From Myxococcota bacterium (GTDB taxonomy: Bacteria > Myxococcota > Myxococcia > Myxococcales > Myxococcaceae), in NCBI GenBank assembly GCA_049322255.1, contig JBMORE010000162.1, forward strand, positions 44,561-64,560: a stretch of DNA of 20,000 nt, read 5' to 3'. Under the pieces are notes generated by a model, which saw only the letters and a list, made by a program, of their open reading frames with translations, made no database searches and was not told the origin of the DNA. Position 1 is the stretch's first letter. Every line of letters starts with the position of its first letter. A program made the translations under genes and the position numbers. This document shows positions 130 through 20,000 of this stretch, piece by piece.

Positions 130-372
130 TCACCCGTCGGACGGCAAGTCGTAGGCGATGTCTCGAGGCAAGTCCCAGCCCACCCCGGGCCGCAGCCCCT
201 TGCCGCGGACGGTGACGAGCTTGAGCTTGAAGGACTTGGTCTGGCGCTTTCTCTCGTCGAGCGCGCGGCGCAAGCCTTCCTCCACGAGCGAGCGAACAGT
301 CGTGTGCTCGCGAGCGGCGACCTTCTTCGCCTCGCCCAGGAGCGCGTCAGCAATCTCGATGGTGGTCTTCAT
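130..372 (-). CDS. vapB: VapB-type ribbon-helix-helix antitoxin
   Basis: MKTTIEIADALLGEAKKVAAREHTTVRSLVEEGLRRAL is an RHH antitoxin N-terminus. It lies directly upstream of the PIN gene. ATG at 372 is preferred over the ORF-track start at 438; an alternative ATG is at 384. Confidence 0.85.
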   Translation of the reverse strand: MKTTIEIADALLGEAKKVAAREHTTVRSLVEEGLRRALDERKRQTKSFKLKLVTVRGKGLRPGVGWDLPRDIAYDLPSDG

Positions 373-409
373 ATGGGTCACCATATCCACCAGGCTGGGT
401 GAACGCCAA
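371..409 (-). promoter_or_regulatory. Putative vapBC promoter with palindromic autoregulatory operator
   Basis: A perfect inverted repeat ATATGG-N4-CCATAT at 371-386 overlaps the start codon. The minus strand reads TTGGCG-N18-TATGGT-N7-ATG with no Shine-Dalgarno. Confidence 0.55.
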
Positions 410-669
410 ATCGGACTGGCACGGACTCGTCGGCTCACGATCCGCGTTCGATGGCGCCCCGTGAGCCATCATCGATCGCGTGTATCGACCTTTCCTTGGA
501 TCGACAGTCCTCGCGCTGCTCTTGACGATGCTTGCCGGCTGTACGGCCTCGGGAAAGGCACCCTCTGAGCTCGCTTATCAAGTCCGGGTCGGGCGCCGGC
601 TTCTTCGGCTCGTCCGCCACGGCGAACACGCTCCAGAGCATTCCGACGGCGGCGAAGCGCCTCCTCGCG

Positions 670-1512
670 CTATCCCCTCACTCGCTCGGAACCTGAGCTG
701 CGCGTGGCTTCGGCTGCGATGGGAGCGATCGGCTCCAGCTGGACCCGCGAGATGATCGCTTCGCTCTCTTTCGCCGAGGCCTGAATGGCTTCTACGCCCG
801 TCAGGAGGTCGTCGAGCTGGTCTCCGAGCTGGTCGGGGCTGGCCATGGTCAACACCTGGTCACGCAACAGCCGCACCGAGTTCTCGATGAGGTTCATCTG
901 CCCCCGGGCGCGCGCGAGGAAGTTCTGTATCTCTCCGATGGTGTCCATCCGCCGCTGTAAGACCTGGGCATTCTTGCGCGCGATCTCCGCCACCGCGGCG
1001 TCCTTCATCGACTTCTCCATCTTCTGCTGGACCTCGAGCTGCTCTCCCAGCTCGCGAAAATTGGTGGCCGACAGGTAGGTCTCGGCGCGCGCGCACGCCG
1101 CGGCCAGGGTGACGAAGCTCTGGTGCAGCTGGGAAAGCTTGTCGAGCTCGGTCTGGAGGAGAATCGCCTTGAACGAGGGGTTCACCTGCATGTCGCGCTC
1201 AATCTCCCGGCGTAGCTCGTCGAGCGCGTGGGCCCGCGCCCAGTCGCGCTCCGGGAGTGACTCCATCAGCTTGGCCACCCGGGCGCGGTCGGCTTTCTCG
1301 CGCTCCTCTCGGTGCGCGGCATCGACGTAGCGCTTGAAGGGTCGCAGGTCGGGGCCGAACAAGAGCCACAAAGCCTCGAGCCCCAACGCCACCGCGCCGA
1401 GCACGTACTCGCCGGTGAGCGCGCTGGCGGTGAGCGCTCCGCCCAAAAGAGAGAGGTTGTAGACGTTGGCGAACGCCGCCTTGAGGTAGCTGGGGGCTGA
1501 CTCGGTGGACAA
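670..1512 (-). CDS. Hypothetical membrane-anchored coiled-coil protein (N-terminal hydrophobic hairpin + long helical domain), last gene of the ABC/OmpA operon
   Basis: 280 aa. TTG start with a GAGGGG RBS overlapping the ATPase stop. Hydrophobic segments around residues 12-53 are followed by an E/Q/L/R-rich heptad region. Codon usage is GC3-rich. Confidence 0.85.
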   Translation of the reverse strand: MSTESAPSYLKAAFANVYNLSLLGGALTASALTGEYVLGAVALGLEALWLLFGPDLRPFKRYVDAAHREEREKADRARVAKLMESLPERDWARAHALDELRREIERDMQVNPSFKAILLQTELDKLSQLHQSFVTLAAACARAETYLSATNFRELGEQLEVQQKMEKSMKDAAVAEIARKNAQVLQRRMDTIGEIQNFLARARGQMNLIENSVRLLRDQVLTMASPDQLGDQLDDLLTGVEAIQASAKESEAIISRVQLEPIAPIAAEATRSSGSERVRG

Positions 1513-1519
1513 AGGCCCC

Positions 1520-2377
1520 TCAAAGTCCCATGCGCAGGTTGCCGTGCACGTCGAGCGAGTGGAGCAGGTCGAGCAGGTGGTTCTCTACCCGTTTGAACTC
1601 GGCGGACTGCTTGAGCGCGGGGCTGCGGTCTTCGAAGGTGGGCACCTCGATGCGGTGGAGCACTTTCGCCGGCCGCGAAGAGAGCACGAACACCACGTCG
1701 GCGAGGAACACCGCCTCGCTGATGTCGTGGGTGACGAAGAGCACCGTGTTGTCCTCTTTGTGAAGCACGTCGAGGATGAGCCCCTGCATTCCCCAGCGCG
1801 TCTGCGGGTCGAGCGCGCCAAAAGGCTCGTCCATCAGCACCAGCTTGGGCTTGTTGACGATGGTGCGGGCGATCGCCACCCGCTGCTTCATGCCGCCCGA
1901 GAGCTGTTTGGGCAGCGCGTCGGCAAAGTCTTTGAGCCCCACCTGGGCGATGATCTCCATCGCCTGCTTCTTGCGCTGGGCGGGAGGAATGCCGTGCAGC
2001 TCCAGGCCGTACTCCACGTTCTTGCGCACCGTGCGCCAAGCGAAGGAGGTGTAGCTCTGAAAGACCATGCCCCGGTCACGCCCGGTGCCGGTCACCACCT
2101 GTCCGTCGATGAGCACTTGGCCAGCGTCGGGCTGAAGGAGCCCCGCCACGGCTTTCAAGATCGTGCTCTTGCCGCAGCCCGAAGGCCCCAAGAAAACCGC
2201 CAGCTCGCCTTTGCCTGGCTTGTTGGAGACGGAAAGGTCGGCGCCCTGCACCGCCTGCACCGTGTTGCCCCTGCGGTCGGTGTAGCTGATGTAGAGGTCC
2301 CTGATTTCCAGCTTGGGCACCGAGCCGGTCATCGCCGGCGCGGAAGCTTCAGCCGCCGCGGAGGTCGGCTCAGGCAT
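1520..2377 (-). CDS. ABC transporter ATP-binding protein, NitT/TauT (SsuB/TauB-like) family
   Basis: Walker A GPSGCGKST, Q-loop VFQ, signature LSGGMKQR, Walker B LVLMDEP, D-loop GALD and H-loop VTHD are all intact. The start overlaps the permease stop (ATGCCTGA). Confidence 0.95.
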   Translation of the reverse strand: MPEPTSAAAEASAPAMTGSVPKLEIRDLYISYTDRRGNTVQAVQGADLSVSNKPGKGELAVFLGPSGCGKSTILKAVAGLLQPDAGQVLIDGQVVTGTGRDRGMVFQSYTSFAWRTVRKNVEYGLELHGIPPAQRKKQAMEIIAQVGLKDFADALPKQLSGGMKQRVAIARTIVNKPKLVLMDEPFGALDPQTRWGMQGLILDVLHKEDNTVLFVTHDISEAVFLADVVFVLSSRPAKVLHRIEVPTFEDRSPALKQSAEFKRVENHLLDLLHSLDVHGNLRMGL

Positions 2378-3275
2378 CGGCTTCCCTCCAGGAGAAGAGC
2401 AGCCGGTTCACCCCGCGAATCAACAGGTCGGTGAGAATGCCGATCACCCCCACCACCAGAATGCCGGCGAACGACCAGGCCGGCTTGGTGTGCTGCTCAG
2501 CCAGCCGCAAGATGTAGCCGATGCCACTTTGCGGGTTCACGATCTCCGCGAGGATGATGTAGGTCCACGCGATCGCGTTCATCACCCGAAAAGAGTCGAA
2601 GATCTGCGGCAACGCGGCGGGGATGAGCACCGTGCGAATCACCTGCGCGCGGCTGGCTCCCAAGGTGAAGGCGGTGTGCACCAGCTCCTCCGGCACCACC
2701 CGAATGGCGTCGACCACCACCGGCAAGAGAAACACCACCGTGCCCAGGAAGAGAAAGGCGATCTTCTGCGACTCCTCGATGCCGAACCACAAGATGAGCA
2801 GCGGAATGAACGCGGTGATCGGCAAGTACCGCATCGGAGCGAGGATGGGATCGAAGAACTTGTTCACCGACTCGAACGAGCCCATCAAGATTCCCAAGGG
2901 CAGCGCCACCGCCACCGAGAGCCCGAAGGCCTTCAAGATGCGCACCGAGCTCACCAGCACCGAGGGGAGCAGGTCTTTTTCGAAGACGAGGTAGAGCAGG
3001 CTGCGCACCACCTCGTCGGGCGGCGGCAAGAAGAAGTGCGAGACCAGCGGCTCTGAGCCCTTGCCCCGATCGACCCAGACGTAGCTGCACACCGCCCACG
3101 CCACCAGCAAGAGCGCCACCGAGGCCACCGACAGCAGCCGTCCGGTACCGGCGGGGACAGGCGCGCGCAGCGCCCACAGCGACGCCTCGCTCTTTCTCCG
3201 CGCCCCCTCAGTCCCCCGCACCAGGGAGACGCCTGTGGACCCACCTCCGGCGGGACGATCAGGCTCAGTTGGCAT
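2370..3275 (-). CDS. ABC transporter permease, NitT/TauT (SsuC/TauC-like) family
   Basis: Multiple TM helices, the FLPPPxEV motif, PLLILWFGI, the EAA-like loop ELVHTAFTLGAS and WTYIILAE. Overlaps the upstream gene by 11 nt. Confidence 0.93.
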   Translation of the reverse strand: MPTEPDRPAGGGSTGVSLVRGTEGARRKSEASLWALRAPVPAGTGRLLSVASVALLLVAWAVCSYVWVDRGKGSEPLVSHFFLPPPDEVVRSLLYLVFEKDLLPSVLVSSVRILKAFGLSVAVALPLGILMGSFESVNKFFDPILAPMRYLPITAFIPLLILWFGIEESQKIAFLFLGTVVFLLPVVVDAIRVVPEELVHTAFTLGASRAQVIRTVLIPAALPQIFDSFRVMNAIAWTYIILAEIVNPQSGIGYILRLAEQHTKPAWSFAGILVVGVIGILTDLLIRGVNRLLFSWREADA

Positions 3276-4893
3276 TCAAGATGACCTTGATATCGGTGCG
3301 CCGGTTGAGCGCCCGCCCGTCCTCGGTCGTGTTGGTCGCCACCGGGTTGGCCGAACCGTGGCCGACGGCGACGAAGCGCTCGCCGGGAAGAGCGAAATTC
3401 TTCACCAGGTAGGCCTTCACCGCCTCGGCGCGCTTCTGGGAGAGCGTCTTGTTCACCGCCGCCGATCCGCGCGAGTCGGTGTTCCCCTCCACCTGCAGGT
3501 AGGTGTTGCCGAAGGCGAGCATCGTCTCCCCCAGCGCATCGAGGGTGAAGTAGCTGCCGGGCATGATCTCATCCGAGCCGGTGGTGAAGTGAATCGACAA
3601 GCTCTTGTTGACGATGGCGCGGTCGGACACCTTGGGCTTGTCCTTGAAGGCGAAGGACTCTTCCACCTTCTGGCCCCGGTAGCGGTCGGCGAGCGCGGCG
3701 ACGAAGCGCCCGTCCATCCAATCTTTGGCGTCGACCATCTTGGTCACCACGCCCTTCTTGCGCCAGATGACGAAGGCGCCGTTGAAGAGCGCGTGGAAGT
3801 ACGGCTTGGGCCCGGACAGCCCGTAGAAGACCGCGTTGTCCGCCCACGGGGTGAGCTTGAGGCCCGAGAGCATGCCCGAAACATCGTCGGGGGTGAGCTT
3901 GAGCGCGCTGGCGACGATCTGGTGGGAACCTTGCGGGTCCTCCTGCATCACGCTGATGCCGTCGAACCAGCCGCCCACGAAGTCCTGCACCGTCTGCGGC
4001 GCTTCGTCGATGAGCGCTTGGCGGGCCACCAGGGTGTCGGCGATGACGTTGGTGGCGGCGAGGGTGGAGACGAGGATGTGCGCCTCGTTCTCCCGCGCGG
4101 CCACCGCGCTGGAGAGGTCGGGCTCCCAGGTGACGGCGGCGTCGACCTTGCCGGCCTTGAAGGTGGCGGCGGCCTGCGGAGCCTCGTTCACGTAGACCAA
4201 GCTCTTCTCCACTTGGCCGCGCTCCTCTGGGGTGAGGCCCGACTGCGAGAGCAGATAGAGCAAAAGCCAATGCGAGGGCGTGAACTTGGTGGTGGCGATG
4301 CGCTTGCCCTTCAGGTCCTCCACCGACTTGATGGTCTTGAGCGAGACGATGCCGTCTCCGCCGCGGCTCCAATCCTGCTGGATGATCGACTTGGCGGCGA
4401 TGTTCTGCTCGGCCAGACGCGACGCCTCGTTGGCGTAGGAGTCGACCGTGTCCCACATGATGTCGATGTCGCCCTTGATGAAGGCGTTGAGCTTCACCAC
4501 CGGGTCCTCGAGCAACACGAACTGCACGTCGAGCCCGTACTTCTTCTTGTAGATCGACGCCGGGCTTCCCACCTCGAGCCCGCCGTTGGCGACGATGCCC
4601 GGGGCGTGGCCCGCCCAGGTGTTGATACCCACCTTGAGCGTGCGCGAAAGCTTGCCCGACCCCAGGTGTGCAGCCAGGGCGGAGTTGAGCATCACCTCGG
4701 CGTTGCGCTTGGGCTCGACGAGGTCCTTGCCGATGCTGGCGAAGTCGTCTTGGGTGACCTCGCCGCCCACCTTGGCCTCACCGGCGCCGGCCCAGCCTCT
4801 GATCTGGTCGCCGTACTTCTTGAAGACCACGAACCCCACGACGCCCAACACCACCAGCGTCAAGAACAACTTTCCGAACGGGGTCAGCTTCAT
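3265..4893 (-). CDS. Membrane-anchored ABC substrate-binding protein (SsuA/THI5/NMT1-like PBP2) fused to a C-terminal OmpA/MotB-type peptidoglycan-binding domain
   Basis: N-terminal TM helix LFLTLVVLGVVGFVVF. PBP2 motifs WAGHAP, DWSRGGDGIV, IKSVEDLKGKRIA and DAAVTWEP. OmpA-C motifs IHFTTGS, VEGNTD, NKTLSQKRAEAV, GHGSANP and NRRTDI. A GGAGAG RBS precedes the start. Confidence 0.92.
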   Translation of the reverse strand: MKLTPFGKLFLTLVVLGVVGFVVFKKYGDQIRGWAGAGEAKVGGEVTQDDFASIGKDLVEPKRNAEVMLNSALAAHLGSGKLSRTLKVGINTWAGHAPGIVANGGLEVGSPASIYKKKYGLDVQFVLLEDPVVKLNAFIKGDIDIMWDTVDSYANEASRLAEQNIAAKSIIQQDWSRGGDGIVSLKTIKSVEDLKGKRIATTKFTPSHWLLLYLLSQSGLTPEERGQVEKSLVYVNEAPQAAATFKAGKVDAAVTWEPDLSSAVAARENEAHILVSTLAATNVIADTLVARQALIDEAPQTVQDFVGGWFDGISVMQEDPQGSHQIVASALKLTPDDVSGMLSGLKLTPWADNAVFYGLSGPKPYFHALFNGAFVIWRKKGVVTKMVDAKDWMDGRFVAALADRYRGQKVEESFAFKDKPKVSDRAIVNKSLSIHFTTGSDEIMPGSYFTLDALGETMLAFGNTYLQVEGNTDSRGSAAVNKTLSQKRAEAVKAYLVKNFALPGERFVAVGHGSANPVATNTTEDGRALNRRTDIKVILNAN

Positions 4894-4915
4894 TTTGGCT
4901 TTCTCTCCTTGAGGG

Positions 4916-5536
4916 CTAGGTGACCGGCGGCTCGGCCGGAGCCTGGAAGAAGTCCACGACTTTCTGCACTTCTGTCTTGCGCGCGCTCGCGGCGTTGGCC
5001 AACGCGGTCAGCGAGGCGGTGCGCTTGGCGATGTCCGCCTTGAGCGCGGAAATCTTCTCATCGAGGGTGCGAATCTGCATCTCCGCGTCCTGATTCGCCT
5101 TGGCGGTGGAGCTCTCGTTCACCTTCACGTAGGCGTCGAGCGCCCGCTTTTGGTTCTGGGCGGCGGCGATGATCTTCTCGGTCTCGAAGCCGAACGCTTT
5201 GAGCGCAGCCTCGACGATCTGCTTCTTCACCGGTTGAGGCGTCGCCTCGGGCAGGTTCTTGAGCAGCTCCTCGGCCTTCTTCACCCGGTCGAGCTCGCCG
5301 CCGTCCATGCCCGCGTCGCGGAAGATGGCGTCGAAGTCTTTGGGAGCGCTGGCCGTGGGCCCCAAGACTTTGTCCAGGCGCAACGGGGGCAGCTCGGGCG
5401 CCTCCGGCTTGGCCGTTTGAGCGAGCTTGGCCACCACTTCGGCGGGCGACTCCTCGGTCGCGTCGCGATCACGATTGCCATCGGTCTCGACGAAGATGCC
5501 CAGGAGCTTCGAGCCCAGGCCTTTTTCCTCGGACAT
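4916..5536 (-). CDS. Hypothetical protein: amphipathic N-terminus, Pro-rich linker, helical/coiled-coil C-terminal domain; first gene of the operon
   Basis: 206 aa with a strong GGGGAGAGG RBS. N-terminus KGLGSKLLGIFVE; C-terminal heptads IRTLDEKISALKADIAKRTASL. Confidence 0.85.
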   Translation of the reverse strand: MSEEKGLGSKLLGIFVETDGNRDRDATEESPAEVVAKLAQTAKPEAPELPPLRLDKVLGPTASAPKDFDAIFRDAGMDGGELDRVKKAEELLKNLPEATPQPVKKQIVEAALKAFGFETEKIIAAAQNQKRALDAYVKVNESSTAKANQDAEMQIRTLDEKISALKADIAKRTASLTALANAASARKTEVQKVVDFFQAPAEPPVT

Positions 5537-5618: not shown

Positions 5619-6701
5619 ATGCCCAAGTTCGAGGTGCACATTCCCGCGGCCGAGGTCAGCGAGTTCAACGTCACCCTCAAAGTCGACGCCGACAACTGGA
5701 TGGCGGCGCTCAAGACCGGCATGCACAAGCTCGGGGAGCAGGGGGCCTCGGTGCAGAACGTGCTGGTCGACATTCAGGAGGACAACTCCATCCACGTCAC
5801 CGAGTCGAGCTCAGGGCGGGTGTTTCGCATTCGCGAGCTCTCCGACGCTGAAGCCGCCGCCGCTTCGGTGAAGAAGCCGCCCGTGCTCTCGGCGCCGCCA
5901 CCTTCCGCCCGCACCTTCCCTTGGGGCAGCTCGGCCACCCAGCCCGCCCGTCCTCGCTCGGTGCACGAGGCGGTCACCGAGCCGAACCACAAAGTGATCG
6001 CCGAGCCCGACACGCTCCCGCCGTCGCCGGCCGCGACGCTGCCCGGAGTCCACCCTGAGCTGCTGAAGCCGACCCCCACCCGCATCATCGAGCGCGCCCG
6101 CCGCCACGAGCCAGACGAGGTGGTCGAGCTGGAAAAGCCCACCCAGCCGGTGCTGGGCTCCATCGGGCGCCCCAAGCCAACCAAGAAGGGTGCCCAGGAG
6201 GACATCGAAGACGTCCTCGCCGAGGTCTTCGACCAAGTGCAGAACGTCTACGGCAAGAAGACCGAGGAGGAGGCGCTCTACTTCCTGCTCGACTTGGCGC
6301 TGCAGAAGATTCCTGCCGAATCAGGGACGGTCTATCGCGCCGACGCGACTACCGGCGACTTGAGCTTCGCCGCCGTCCGAGGTCCCAAGGCCAAGGAGCT
6401 GCTCGCCGCCAGGGTGATCGTCCCCTCGGGCACCGGCATCGCCGGTTTCGCCGCCAACGAGGGCGTGTCGGTGGCCGTCTCCGACGTGGAGAAAGACTCG
6501 CGCTTCTACGCCGCCATCTCGGAGAAGCTGAAGTACGAGGTGAAGTCGATCTTGTGCTCGCCGATGATGACCCACGGGCGCACCTTCGGCTGCCTGCAGT
6601 TGCTCAACAAGAGCGGCTCGGCGGTGTTCAGCGCGCACGAAGTGGGCCTGCTCTCCTATGTGGCCCACCAGGCGGCGCTGTTCCTCAACTCGCGGCTCTG
6701 A
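5619..6701 (+). CDS. GAF domain-containing protein (small N-terminal alpha/beta domain, Pro-rich linker, C-terminal GAF, no output domain)
   Basis: C-terminal GAF motifs GTGIAGFAANEG, DVEKDSRFY, SILCSPM, GCLQLLNK and FSAHEVGLL. Confidence 0.88.
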   Translation: MPKFEVHIPAAEVSEFNVTLKVDADNWMAALKTGMHKLGEQGASVQNVLVDIQEDNSIHVTESSSGRVFRIRELSDAEAAAASVKKPPVLSAPPPSARTFPWGSSATQPARPRSVHEAVTEPNHKVIAEPDTLPPSPAATLPGVHPELLKPTPTRIIERARRHEPDEVVELEKPTQPVLGSIGRPKPTKKGAQEDIEDVLAEVFDQVQNVYGKKTEEEALYFLLDLALQKIPAESGTVYRADATTGDLSFAAVRGPKAKELLAARVIVPSGTGIAGFAANEGVSVAVSDVEKDSRFYAAISEKLKYEVKSILCSPMMTHGRTFGCLQLLNKSGSAVFSAHEVGLLSYVAHQAALFLNSRL

Positions 6702-11232: not shown

Positions 11233-11268
11233 TTGCGCCAAGTGGTCACGAGTGACTATTTTGTCTCC
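11233..11268 (+). promoter_or_regulatory. Putative TA promoter with palindromic operator
   Basis: TTGCGC (11233-11238)-N18-TATTTT (11257-11262)-N6-ATG. An inverted repeat GTCAC-GA-GTGAC at 11245-11256 lies in the spacer. No SD. Confidence 0.55.
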
Positions 11269-11577
11269 ATGCGCGTGGTGAACATCAAAGAGCTCAAAGC
11301 TCGGCTCAGCGCCTATCTGCGCGAAGTCGACCGCGGCGAGGAGTTTCTGGTCACTGACCGAAGCCGCGTCGTCGCCCGGCTGGCCCCGCCCCGCTTCGAA
11401 TCGTCTGCGCAGGCAGGCAAGGTAAGCGAAGTGCTCGGTCAGCTCGCTGCTCAGGGCGCGCGGCTCCCCCTTCGAGAAAGACGGCCCACCGATTATCGAC
11501 GCAGCGGCGCCGGGCCGGGGCTGTCCACCAAGGAAATCGACGAGCTCGTCGACTGGGTTCGGCAGGAACCCAGATGA
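11269..11577 (+). CDS. Phd/YefM-family antitoxin
   Basis: MRVVNIKELKARLSAYLREVDRGEEFLVTDRSRVVARLAP is a classic Phd N-terminus. ATGA overlap with the PIN gene. Confidence 0.9.
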   Translation: MRVVNIKELKARLSAYLREVDRGEEFLVTDRSRVVARLAPPRFESSAQAGKVSEVLGQLAAQGARLPLRERRPTDYRRSGAGPGLSTKEIDELVDWVRQEPR

Positions 11578-11996
11578 ATCTCTACCTCGAGTCGAGCGCG
11601 GCCCTTCGCGATCTGCTCGAGGGGGATGAGGCCCAGGCCATCCGGGCTTTGCTTGGCAAGGCGCAGCTGGTCGCGACCTCTCGCCTGACGTTGAGCGAGG
11701 TCGGGCGAGTGCTCGCGCGGCTCAGAGTGCTCGATCCGCAGGCGGCGGCGCGGGCTTCGGTCCGTGAATCCGAGTTTGAGAGTGAGACCGAGCTGTGGGT
11801 GGTGCAGCCGGTCGACGAGCCTATCTGGGAGCGGTGCCGCCGTCCGTTCCCCGCGGAGCCGGTGCGATTGCTGGACGCGGTCCACCTGGCGACAATCGAA
11901 AAGCTCGGTGGGTTGCTCCCCGGGCTGACGATTCTTTCGACGGACGAGCGGGTGCGTCGCAACGCCTCGGCGTTGGGATTCGACGTCCGCCCCTGA
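11574..11996 (+). CDS. vapC: PIN-domain VapC toxin
   Basis: YLESSA, TSRLTLSEV, LLDAVHLAT and ILSTDER are PIN motifs. 140 aa, coupled to the antitoxin. Confidence 0.88.
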   Translation: MNLYLESSAALRDLLEGDEAQAIRALLGKAQLVATSRLTLSEVGRVLARLRVLDPQAAARASVRESEFESETELWVVQPVDEPIWERCRRPFPAEPVRLLDAVHLATIEKLGGLLPGLTILSTDERVRRNASALGFDVRP

Positions 11997-14979: not shown

Positions 14980-15429
14980 ATGGCGCTCAAGGAGCGGATC
15001 GACGCCGATCTCAAGGACGCGATGCGCGCGAAAGCCGAGCTCGATACCTCGGTTTTGCGCATGCTCAAGAGCGCGGTGAAGTACAAAGAGGTCGAGCCGG
15101 GCGCCAAGCCGCTCGACGACGCGGGGGTGATGGCGGTCATCTCCACCCTCATCAAACAGCGACGCGACTCGGTCGAGCAGTTCAAGCAAGGTGGCCGGCC
15201 GGAGCTGGCGCAGAAAGAAGAGCAGGAGATTGCGGTGCTCCAGCGCTACCTGCCCGCTCAGCTCTCTGCCGCCGAGCTCGCCGCCGAGGTGCAAAAAGCG
15301 ATCGCCGAGGCCCAGGCGCAAGGCCCCAAGGACATGGGCGCGGTGATGAAGATTCTCTCTCCGCGGCTCAAGGGCCGCGCCGAGGGCAAGGCCATCTCCG
15401 ACGAGGTGAAGGCGCAGCTCTCGAAGTAG
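14980..15429 (+). CDS. yqeY: GatB/YqeY domain protein
   Basis: LKERIDADLKDAMRAK, KQRRDSVEQF, GRPELA, YLPAQLS and KDMGAVM. Canonical position after rpsU. Confidence 0.93.
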   Translation: MALKERIDADLKDAMRAKAELDTSVLRMLKSAVKYKEVEPGAKPLDDAGVMAVISTLIKQRRDSVEQFKQGGRPELAQKEEQEIAVLQRYLPAQLSAAELAAEVQKAIAEAQAQGPKDMGAVMKILSPRLKGRAEGKAISDEVKAQLSK

Positions 15430-15434
15430 GCGGC

Positions 15435-17228
15435 TTGCTCATCCCCGAGCACAAAATCGAAGAGCTCCGCGAGCGGGTGGACATCGTCGCCCTCATCTCG
15501 CGCCATGTGGAGCTCAAGAAGTCGGGCCGAAGCTTCAAGGGCCGCTGCCCCTTCCACCAGGAGAAGACCGCCTCCTTCCACGTCACTCCCGAGATGCGCC
15601 GCTTCAAGTGCTTCGGGTGCAACGCGGGCGGCGACGCCATCGCCTTCGTGCAGCGCTATTTGGGCAAGACCTTCGTCGACGCGGTGAAGGACCTGGCGCG
15701 CGAAGCCGGGGTGGACCTCGAGGCGGCGGCCGACCCCAGCGCCAAGGAGCGAGCGCAGCTTAGGGAAGTCACCGACTTCGCCGCCGAGCACTTCAAGTCG
15801 CGCCTGTGGGACGAGGGCCACGGCAAGAAGGCACGCGAATACCTGCACCGTCGAGGGGTCGCCGACGAGGTAGCGCGGGCCTTCGGGTTGGGCTGGGCGC
15901 CTTCGGGTTGGCAAGACCTCGCCGACCGCTTACTCGAACGTGGGCTCCTCTCCTTCGGAGAGAAAGCCGGGCTGGTGGCCCGCCGCCAGCGGGGCGAGGG
16001 CTACTACGACCTTTTCCGCGGGCGGCTGATCATCCCCATTCGTTCTCCGGAAGGGCGCACCATCGCCTTCGGCGGCCGCCTGCTCGAGGGGGACGAGGGG
16101 CCCAAGTACCTCAACTCGCGCGAGAGCAAGCTCTACAACAAGAGCGAGACGCTCTACGGCCTGGACCAGGCGCGTGACGAGATTCGCAAGAAGAAGTCGG
16201 CGGTGCTGGTCGAGGGTTACTTCGACTGCATCGGCCTGCACCAGGCGGAGGTGAAACAGGCGGTGGCCTTGTGCTCCACCGCGCTCACCCCCGGGCACCT
16301 GGGGGTGCTCTCCCGCGCCGAGGCCAAGGAGCTGGTGTTGCTCCTCGACGGCGATGACGCCGGCCGCAAGGCGGTGGAGCGGCTGGCCGGCTCGCTGCTC
16401 GCCGCGGGTGCCGCCACCAGGGTGGCCCTCTTACCCGACGGAGATGACCCCGACACCTTCGCCCGCCAGGCCGGCCCCGAAGGGGTGCAAAAGCTCTTGA
16501 CGGCGGCCAAGCCGCTCACCGCGTACTTGTTCGGCGCGCTCTTGCCCCAAGGAAAAGCAGGGAGCTTCGAGGAGAAGATGCAAGCCCTCGAGCGTCTCCG
16601 CCCCGTCACCGCCGCGCTGCCGGTGGGCCTCACCCGCTCGGCCTTTTTCGGCGCCATGAGCCAGCACTTCGGGTTGCCTGCCGCCGAGCTCGAGGCCTCC
16701 TTCAAGGCGAAGACGTCTCCTGTGCGCCCGGTGCCGAAGGCCGCTTCGCCCACGTCGGCTTCCTCAGAACGCTCCTCTGCTCGCCCTGCGACCGAGCGCC
16801 CGCCGGACACGCTCGAAGCCGTCTTCGCCGCCTTCGCCTGCCGTGATGCGCAGCTGCTCCAGAAAGACCCGTACCGCGTCGCCGACGAGCTGACCCACCC
16901 CGGCCTGCGCGCGCTGGTGGCGCACGTCTTTTCGGGCGCGTCGAGCGAAGACGTTCTCTTCGAGGCCTCCTTCCCGGTGAAGGCCGCCCTCGAAGCCGCA
17001 GCGCGTCAGCTGCCCGCCGACCCCGGGGCGCTGGAACCAGCGTTCCTGGCGGCGTGTCGCAAGCTCAAGCTTCGGCACATCGAAGAGCAGCTGTCCCACA
17101 TCGCCAAGGAAACCGCCCGCCTGGAGGGGGCGAGCGAGCTGACAGAGGAGACGCGCCGTTTACTGGCCGAGCGCAGCGAGCTTTTGGCCTTGAAAAGAAA
17201 AGTCCTCGAGCAGGGACCGGAAAGATAG
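15435..17228 (+). CDS. dnaG: DNA primase
   Basis: CHC2 zinc finger CPFH...CFGC, FGGR, PKYLNS, and TOPRIM motifs EGYFD and DGDDAG, plus DPD. Confidence 0.98.
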   Translation: MLIPEHKIEELRERVDIVALISRHVELKKSGRSFKGRCPFHQEKTASFHVTPEMRRFKCFGCNAGGDAIAFVQRYLGKTFVDAVKDLAREAGVDLEAAADPSAKERAQLREVTDFAAEHFKSRLWDEGHGKKAREYLHRRGVADEVARAFGLGWAPSGWQDLADRLLERGLLSFGEKAGLVARRQRGEGYYDLFRGRLIIPIRSPEGRTIAFGGRLLEGDEGPKYLNSRESKLYNKSETLYGLDQARDEIRKKKSAVLVEGYFDCIGLHQAEVKQAVALCSTALTPGHLGVLSRAEAKELVLLLDGDDAGRKAVERLAGSLLAAGAATRVALLPDGDDPDTFARQAGPEGVQKLLTAAKPLTAYLFGALLPQGKAGSFEEKMQALERLRPVTAALPVGLTRSAFFGAMSQHFGLPAAELEASFKAKTSPVRPVPKAASPTSASSERSSARPATERPPDTLEAVFAAFACRDAQLLQKDPYRVADELTHPGLRALVAHVFSGASSEDVLFEASFPVKAALEAAARQLPADPGALEPAFLAACRKLKLRHIEEQLSHIAKETARLEGASELTEETRRLLAERSELLALKRKVLEQGPER

Positions 17229-17280
17229 GTCTTTGAAGCCGGAACAAAGCCCCCCCTTTTCCCGGTTTGGAGATTCGCGT

Positions 17281-17310
17281 TTGTCACACCCGGCCAATCT
17301 GAGCTAGACC
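17281..17310 (+). promoter_or_regulatory. Possible internal sigma70-type promoter for rpoD
   Basis: TTGTCA-N18-TAGACC in the 120-nt dnaG-rpoD gap, upstream of an AGGAG RBS. The -10 match is weak. Confidence 0.3.
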
Positions 17311-17348
17311 GGCCCGCTCGTCTGGCCGCCCATAGGAGAAGTTTCTAC

Positions 17349-19430
<2,082 letters not shown>

Positions 19431-19928: not shown

Positions 19929-20000
19929 GGGCCCTTAGCTCAGCGGTAGAGCTGTCGGCTCATAACCGATTGGTCCCAGGTTCGAATCCTGGAGGGCCCA
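19929..20000 (+). tRNA. ileX: tRNA-Ile2 (CAT anticodon, lysidine type); CCA end beyond the window
   Basis: Acceptor stem GGGCCCT/AGGGCCC+A, D-arm GCTC..GAGC, anticodon arm GTCGG-CT-CAT-AA-CCGAT (CAT at 19961-19963) and T-arm CCAGG-TTCGAAT-CCTGG. G1-C72 is paired and C4/C5 are present, which argues for Ile2 rather than fMet. Its position after rpoD matches ileX. Confidence 0.92.

Follow-up and report, generated by a model that had tools for sequence, protein, structure and literature searches.

A conserved five-gene operon of an ABC transporter and two helical proteins in a Myxococcota bacterium, and its kinship with a longer PspA/AAA operon

A stretch of 20,000 nucleotides from a Myxococcota bacterium of the family Myxococcaceae (assembly GCA_049322255.1, contig JBMORE010000162.1, positions 44,561 to 64,560 of the forward strand; the whole stretch is referred to as the window) carries five adjoining genes that encode a transporter of the ATP-binding cassette (ABC) type flanked by two helical proteins. 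The genes are lettered A to E in their order of transcription:

Gene A, 4916..5536, minus strand: 206 amino acids, no family name (open reading frame call and structure model)
Gene B, 3265..4893, minus strand: 542 amino acids; N-terminal membrane helix, NMT1/SsuA-like binding domain, C-terminal OmpA-like domain
Gene C, 2370..3275, minus strand: 301 amino acids; NitT/TauT-type ABC permease (BPD_transp_1)
Gene D, 1520..2377, minus strand: 285 amino acids; ABC ATPase (ABC_tran)
Gene E, 670..1512, minus strand: 280 amino acids, TTG start; N-terminal hydrophobic hairpin and long antiparallel helical bundle

All five open reading frames lie on the minus strand with spacings of 22, −11, −8 and 7 nt, exactly as a preliminary description of this DNA had given them; its observation that the operon holds no catabolic gene or regulator is also borne out. 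In protein B, the NMT1 (residues 118–321) and OmpA (436–531) domains both score above cut-off and follow a hydrophobic N-terminal helix (Kyte-Doolittle peak 2.4). The OmpA domain holds D473 and R488, which we take to be the canonical OmpA peptidoglycan-binding pair. Protein D has all of its catalytic motifs (Walker A, Q-loop, LSGGMKQ, Walker B and H-loop), and neither A nor E matches a Pfam or NCBIfam family above cut-off. Neither the window nor six related loci gave an Rfam riboswitch match, no sigma-70 promoter was found for the operon, and terminator-like sites are no more frequent than expected by chance.

Do the five genes belong together? Conservation was counted over the best 80 of 108 related loci. 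Gene A is present in 62 of the 63 loci that have 1.8 kb of upstream sequence, genes C, D and E are present in all 60 that have 3 kb downstream, and all five genes occur together in each of the 48 loci with room on both sides. The five gene trees also agree in their distance matrices (rho 0.70–0.92; 40 of the 59 complete loci). The preliminary description had allowed that the flanking genes might not be conserved with the ABC genes; they are (48/48), so the module stands, and the five genes form a real, conserved operon. Its close relatives are in Myxococcota assemblies, with B at 71%–80% within the clade. Within the order, at least 28 of 201 genomes carry gene A (one unpublished genome, G145, is included in this count); for the family's two best-sampled genera, the figures are 0/18 and 0/23 genomes. 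Some related loci are rearranged. At one (L083, G197:C71), A is followed directly by E, facing a distant B-C-D set, and at another (L092, G122:C122), E-B-C-D faces an A-like gene; the parts thereby remain together despite an altered orientation. At a third locus (L086, G003:C33), A, PspA and B are joined by a helical gene with a hydrophobic hairpin and by AAA, and neither a permease nor an ABC ATPase adjoins them. The constant partnership of gene A has an exception at two loci (L084 and L085, in G052 and G056), where it stands alone, apart from the ABC genes.

An operon of this kind has already been catalogued. From computer analysis, Ravi et al. 2024 (PMC11237479, section 18 and Table S3, OGG56892.1) list the order X-PspA-PBPB+OmpA-permease-ABC ATPase-TM+Snf7-double AAA. 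The proposal that the window holds an undescribed system therefore fails, since that source describes a longer version of the gene order and offers a comparable guess at its function. Among the 80 loci, pspA lies between A and B in 25, is absent from 50 and is uncallable in 5. The pspA-bearing loci are labelled Polyangia, Myxococcales, Acidobacteriota and others, and the four intervening pspA genes that were scanned all score above the Pfam PspA threshold. Among loci with 2 kb of room, E is followed by a double AAA gene in 13/15 that bear PspA versus 0/32 that lack it; an additional PspA-bearing locus carries the AAA gene upstream instead. The window operon has no double AAA gene, and no pspA, with a mere 22 bases between A and B. 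Hence, pspA and the AAA gene are missing jointly from the five-gene form.

The five-gene form has at least two origins. A tree of B, built with about half of the PspA-less loci and leaving out nine short or uncallable loci, places the window inside a PspA-less clade of 25 rows (support 99), the root of which is unsure, as L088 may join it (83/80). A second PspA-less locus (L080, cut inside E) lies within the PspA-bearing Acidobacteriota clade, and it represents a separate loss because a topology with all cellular PspA-less rows in a single clade is rejected by the approximately unbiased test (p-AU 1.8e-6, 23 rows). In total, the form occupies four places on the tree, three of which are forced by supported branches. 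For the window's clade, the tree suggests that pspA was likely lost, the alternative being that the sister group gained it. No sign of decay in A or E after the loss of PspA was seen: neither changes faster in the PspA-less clade (distance ratios of 0.50 for A and 0.47 for E versus 0.57–0.68 for B, C and D). The five-gene form is a natural deletion that keeps A, E and the ABC trio without pspA and AAA, meaning that the operon separates into two sub-modules.

PspA and the AAA protein are available in trans from a second locus of the same genome, which is 99.6% complete. This locus (C127:78030-89428; L081 and beyond) holds the genome's one PspA (C127:78069-78701), an OmpA-less binding protein, an E paralog and, ~6 kb on, its only full-length double AAA homolog (C127:87710-89398). 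The binding protein is a paralog of B (25%), and the transmembrane (TM) protein is a paralog of E (24%). The binding protein has lost W93, D130, W256 and D286, all of which are kept in the window's B. A single PspA, apart from A and within ~4 kb of the E paralog, is found in 18/18 A-bearing genomes of the family that were checked. More broadly, among 34 genomes (26 A-bearing ones, out of 27 besides this genome, plus 8 that lack A), PspA is present in 34 and an E-family gene in 33. The other cellular genomes with five-gene forms (G297 and G047) also have PspA and AAA elsewhere, the PspA of G297 having been missed by the PspA alignment search and found by Pfam.

What are the two flanking proteins? 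Both are all-helical in structure models, and neither has a solved sequence relative. The model of A (predicted local distance difference test score [pLDDT] 82) has a short amphipathic N-terminal motif, a low-confidence linker, a three-helix knob (residues 68–114) and an 80-residue helix (119–198). The N-terminus is moderately amphipathic, with a median moment of 0.41 versus 0.57 for PspA. PspA/IM30 was rejected as an identity for A on the basis of no PF04012 or PspA profile match, an hhalign probability of 0.6, and one long helix with no hairpin. A instead matches gp246 of phage G (profile E-value 4e-13), which is its best viral match and its one clear fold match (E-value 5.8e-5, TM-score 0.57); the other fold matches are generic coiled coils (Z up to 6.3). 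A probably corresponds to one of the genes that Ravi et al. 2024 label "X" (PMC11237479, Table S3).

The model of E (pLDDT 80) has a hydrophobic hairpin (residues 17–55) and an antiparallel helical bundle. Its top structural matches are BAR-type bundles, with Z of 9–11.5 and a root-mean-square deviation of 5–7, where the tool's noise level for helical bundles is ~13. The PspA/AAA-bearing loci and the Archangium-type locus carry a homolog of E in the same position. By gene position and topology, E may be the "SIG+TM+Snf7" protein of Ravi et al. 2024 (PMC11237479); the Snf7 label was not reproduced. The genome has no PF03357 match up to E-value 1, Snf7 and PspA are absent from the 25 families listed, of 41, for 55 E members, hhalign of E against PspA gives a probability of 2.6 (from shallow profiles, Neff about 3), and no ESCRT-III or PspA chain is among the fold matches listed for E. 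The nearest named cluster to E is PspM (Atlas score 0.87, 181 shared features, family on 40% of the cluster), although the PF25587 (PspM/Rv2743c) profile does not match E. XpaC/TelA was rejected for both proteins, there being no PF10112 or PF05816 match at either gene up to E-value 1. The preliminary description had proposed a PspA/ESCRT-III-like or XpaC/TelA-like architecture; neither protein showed a match to a PspA, Snf7, XpaC or TelA profile.

The binding pocket of B is conserved. Pocket residues W93, G95, D130, S176, G178, D180, W256, P258 and D286 of B are kept from Myxococcota to most phage copies, and a protein bearing the annotation "putative urea ABC transporter substrate-binding protein" shares the pocket pattern. 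B scores 89.7 against SsuA (cut-off 163.5) and 79.5 against TIGR03427 (cut-off 333.9), and the nearest solved binding proteins, SsuA and TauA, match it with an E-value of about 1e-7. GimA, a NitT/TauT binding protein, is described as binding guanidine in PMC12704784; the available text of PMC9239133 makes no mention of OmpA. Because the pocket and the ATPase motifs are intact, the module may import a solute. The preliminary view that it serves something other than nutrient uptake is supported in part.

Related modules are carried by large phages. Near-full-length B homologs occur in 19/50,697 phage records, including phage G and Lak phages. Single-sequence searches with A and E found no phage record, and only profile searches reached the phage copies; searches with the A profile, with P0002 and with the L100 protein found no viral contig. 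The viral set comprises 40 loci, 2 of 66 near-identical loci and 3 annotated records, giving 45 loci in 27 clusters at 70% identity; its profiles were iterated on the same loci, and 0/957 reversed open reading frames were hit. In 23 of the 27 clusters, A is accompanied by a PspA-like protein that carries a hydrophobic helix of its own, and E and AAA are missing. Two have soluble PspA, E and AAA, with A undetected. One (L185/L196) has the A-B-C-D-E order of the window and no PspA, with hhalign probabilities for L185 of 78 for A (12 columns, modest) and 93 for E. One is broken and has neither E nor an anchored PspA. E and membrane-anchored PspA therefore never occur together in the 27 clusters, and A is present in 24. 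Since the 23 anchored-PspA clusters belong to two clades, few independent events stand behind this exclusion. The association of soluble viral PspA with E (2/2) and of anchored PspA with the lack of E (23/23) is what would be expected if E anchors PspA.

The viral PspA-like proteins are divergent to varying degrees: five of seven scanned match PF04012 below cut-off and two do not match, while that of L102 passes. With the PspA profile, gp247 of phage G has an E-value of 2.4e-17 and the Lak protein 0.004, and the 735-kb phage has no match. In phage G, gp243–gp250 (L099:2947-10032) comprise a permease, an ATPase, an A homolog, an anchored PspA-like protein and two genes for substrate-binding protein (SBP)-OmpA fusions, the second of which has a changed pocket; the host of this phage is Gram-positive. 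In the two clusters with soluble PspA, E and AAA, a vWA-like lipoprotein, recognized by eye, stands in A's place (L181:4008-4745 and L192:4406-5113). PspA, A and E are missing from a cousin module on the Vibrio rotiferianus plasmid pAM7 (L239:3350-12134), which combines two SBP-OmpA genes with vWA, TelA and a NitT/TauT ABC system; the TelA guess made for the window fits this cousin.

The operon sits among core genes. A divergent gene with a C-terminal GAF domain (5619–6701, plus strand) adjoins it in 42/50 PspA-less and 0/25 PspA-bearing loci, which probably reflects a shared chromosomal position. Just downstream of E is a VapB-like antitoxin gene (130–438, minus strand), the partner of which would fall to the left of the window, and two short overlapping open reading frames (11233–11996, plus strand) resemble a Phd/PIN toxin-antitoxin pair by eye. 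Further along are what are presumably a YqeY-like gene, dnaG and rpoD (14980–19430, plus strand; by eye), and a tRNA gene lies at the end of the window (19929–20000, plus strand).

How should the five-gene form be understood? Because its order equals that of the Table S3 row OGG56892.1 (PMC11237479) minus PspA and AAA, our tentative reading is that the operon in the window is a five-gene version of the PspA / PBPB-OmpA ABC / TM-"Snf7" / double-AAA operon, a wall-tethered importer on a membrane scaffold that borrows PspA and AAA from the second locus. The N-terminal helix of B would fix the protein in the inner membrane, and its OmpA domain would grip peptidoglycan; B would bind a small polar, probably nitrogen-rich solute and pass it to C and D. 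E may be the membrane anchor of a helical scaffold, with a role like that of mycobacterial PspM, while A could be a peripheral coiled-coil adaptor that links transporter and anchor. The unit would be active during envelope stress. Several observations weigh against this reading. The second locus is also present in 8/8 genomes without gene A, and since it is general to the family, its presence proves no use in trans; it owns an E paralog, so no second anchor is needed; and the two PspA types are distant, with about 16%–17% identity. The E-PspM link is a lead drawn from language-model features. Two viral five-gene contigs without PspA were found, but they are 14% and 20% complete.

Another explanation, which we consider doubtful, is that the five genes are a complete minimal machine, composed of A, B, C and D plus one membrane-anchored helical protein (E here, anchored PspA in large phages), with E as a membrane scaffold and PspA/AAA optional. 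This would account for the viral clusters, in which E and anchored PspA never co-occur and A is nearly constant, but those with anchored PspA amount to about two lineages, the profiles were iterated on the same loci, and the two viral clusters with soluble PspA and E have no detectable A. Cellular loci also offer support, with the five-gene form at four places on the B tree and a single clade rejected, A and E no faster in the PspA-less clade, and A directly followed by E in G197. Nevertheless, PspA is present in every checked cellular genome with the five-gene form. The BAR-type matches of E suit a scaffold, although they lie below the tool's noise level. If this explanation held, and we would not count on it, A, a wall-tethered ABC importer and one anchored helical protein would form a self-sufficient envelope machine of bacteria and large phages, in which membrane-shaping E replaces anchored PspA and A couples ATP-driven transport to the scaffold. 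It is unlikely that the operon simply imports nutrients or osmolytes with the help of two accessory proteins, its PspA link being historical and no longer relevant in this lineage. The intact pocket and ATPase motifs, the urea-type pocket pattern, the guanidine-binding GimA and the patchy occurrence of the operon would all fit, but B falls far below the SsuA and TIGR03427 cut-offs, there is no linked catabolic gene or riboswitch, and related binding proteins stay with PspA and E without an adjacent permease (second locus and G003), that of the second locus having lost pocket residues. An anti-phage or phage-conflict module at the envelope is very unlikely: the patchy distribution and the related modules of large phages, which might act in superinfection exclusion or preserve the host membrane, are countered by a fixed chromosomal site near core genes (with the same GAF gene adjoining), ordinary GC content and high conservation. 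No evidence of a defence role was found, without a PADLOC scan. Of the stress, repair or defence roles first suggested, the link to envelope stress through PspA is therefore supported by context (pspA in 25/80 loci), and defence is not.

What are the implications? In open papers, no bench test was found for the parent operon, a candidate ESCRT-III-plus-motor system of bacteria. The swap between E and anchored PspA gives E a testable role, and phage G, which is cultured, makes genes A and B accessible at the bench. As long as no function is demonstrated, the five-gene form stays a variant of a catalogued context.

The closest known system is the operon of Ravi et al. 2024 (PMC11237479, section 18 and Table S3), which has the same four central genes in the same order, with an unnamed X upstream. 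The window shares with it a PBPB+OmpA protein with an N-terminal hydrophobic segment, the permease and ATPase that follow, and a TM helical protein after the ATPase; that operon has pspA and an AAA gene, whereas the window operon has neither. Relatives at 60%–65% in B carry its full gene set. Section 18 and the term-searched supplement gave no description of gene A, the PspA-less form or the phage copies. The Archangium row of Table S3 is of the type of the genome's second locus (C127:78030-81361), which has PspA and lacks an OmpA domain, an adjoining NitT/TauT permease and gene A, with a degenerate pocket. Among huge phages, Yuan and Chen 2026 (bioRxiv 10.64898/2026.10.24.761521) report a complete ABC transporter beside 15/189 pspA genes, and their section 9 makes no mention of the OmpA fusion or gene A. 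These loci likewise place an ABC trio beside a PspA-family gene, and phage G and Lak phages carry homologs of B, C, D and A; unlike the window operon, most phage forms have a PspA with a membrane anchor and lack E. The constant partnership of gene A, the phage pattern and the five-gene form itself appear to be new, no description of them having been found in open papers. In mycobacteria, PspM keeps PspA at the membrane, according to the available text of PMC13622631. The plan of PspM in the PspA-PspM pair (Rv2744c-Rv2743c) resembles that of E, with two membrane helices and a helical body, but there is no profile match between them, and the operon as listed in Table S3 (PMC11237479) has no ABC system or AAA gene. 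Finally, B, C and D are in the same transporter class as the NitT/TauT importers (SsuABC, TauABC and GimABC). Relative to these, the operon scores below all family cut-offs, has no catabolic genes, and adds a membrane anchor and an OmpA domain on B as well as two helical partners.

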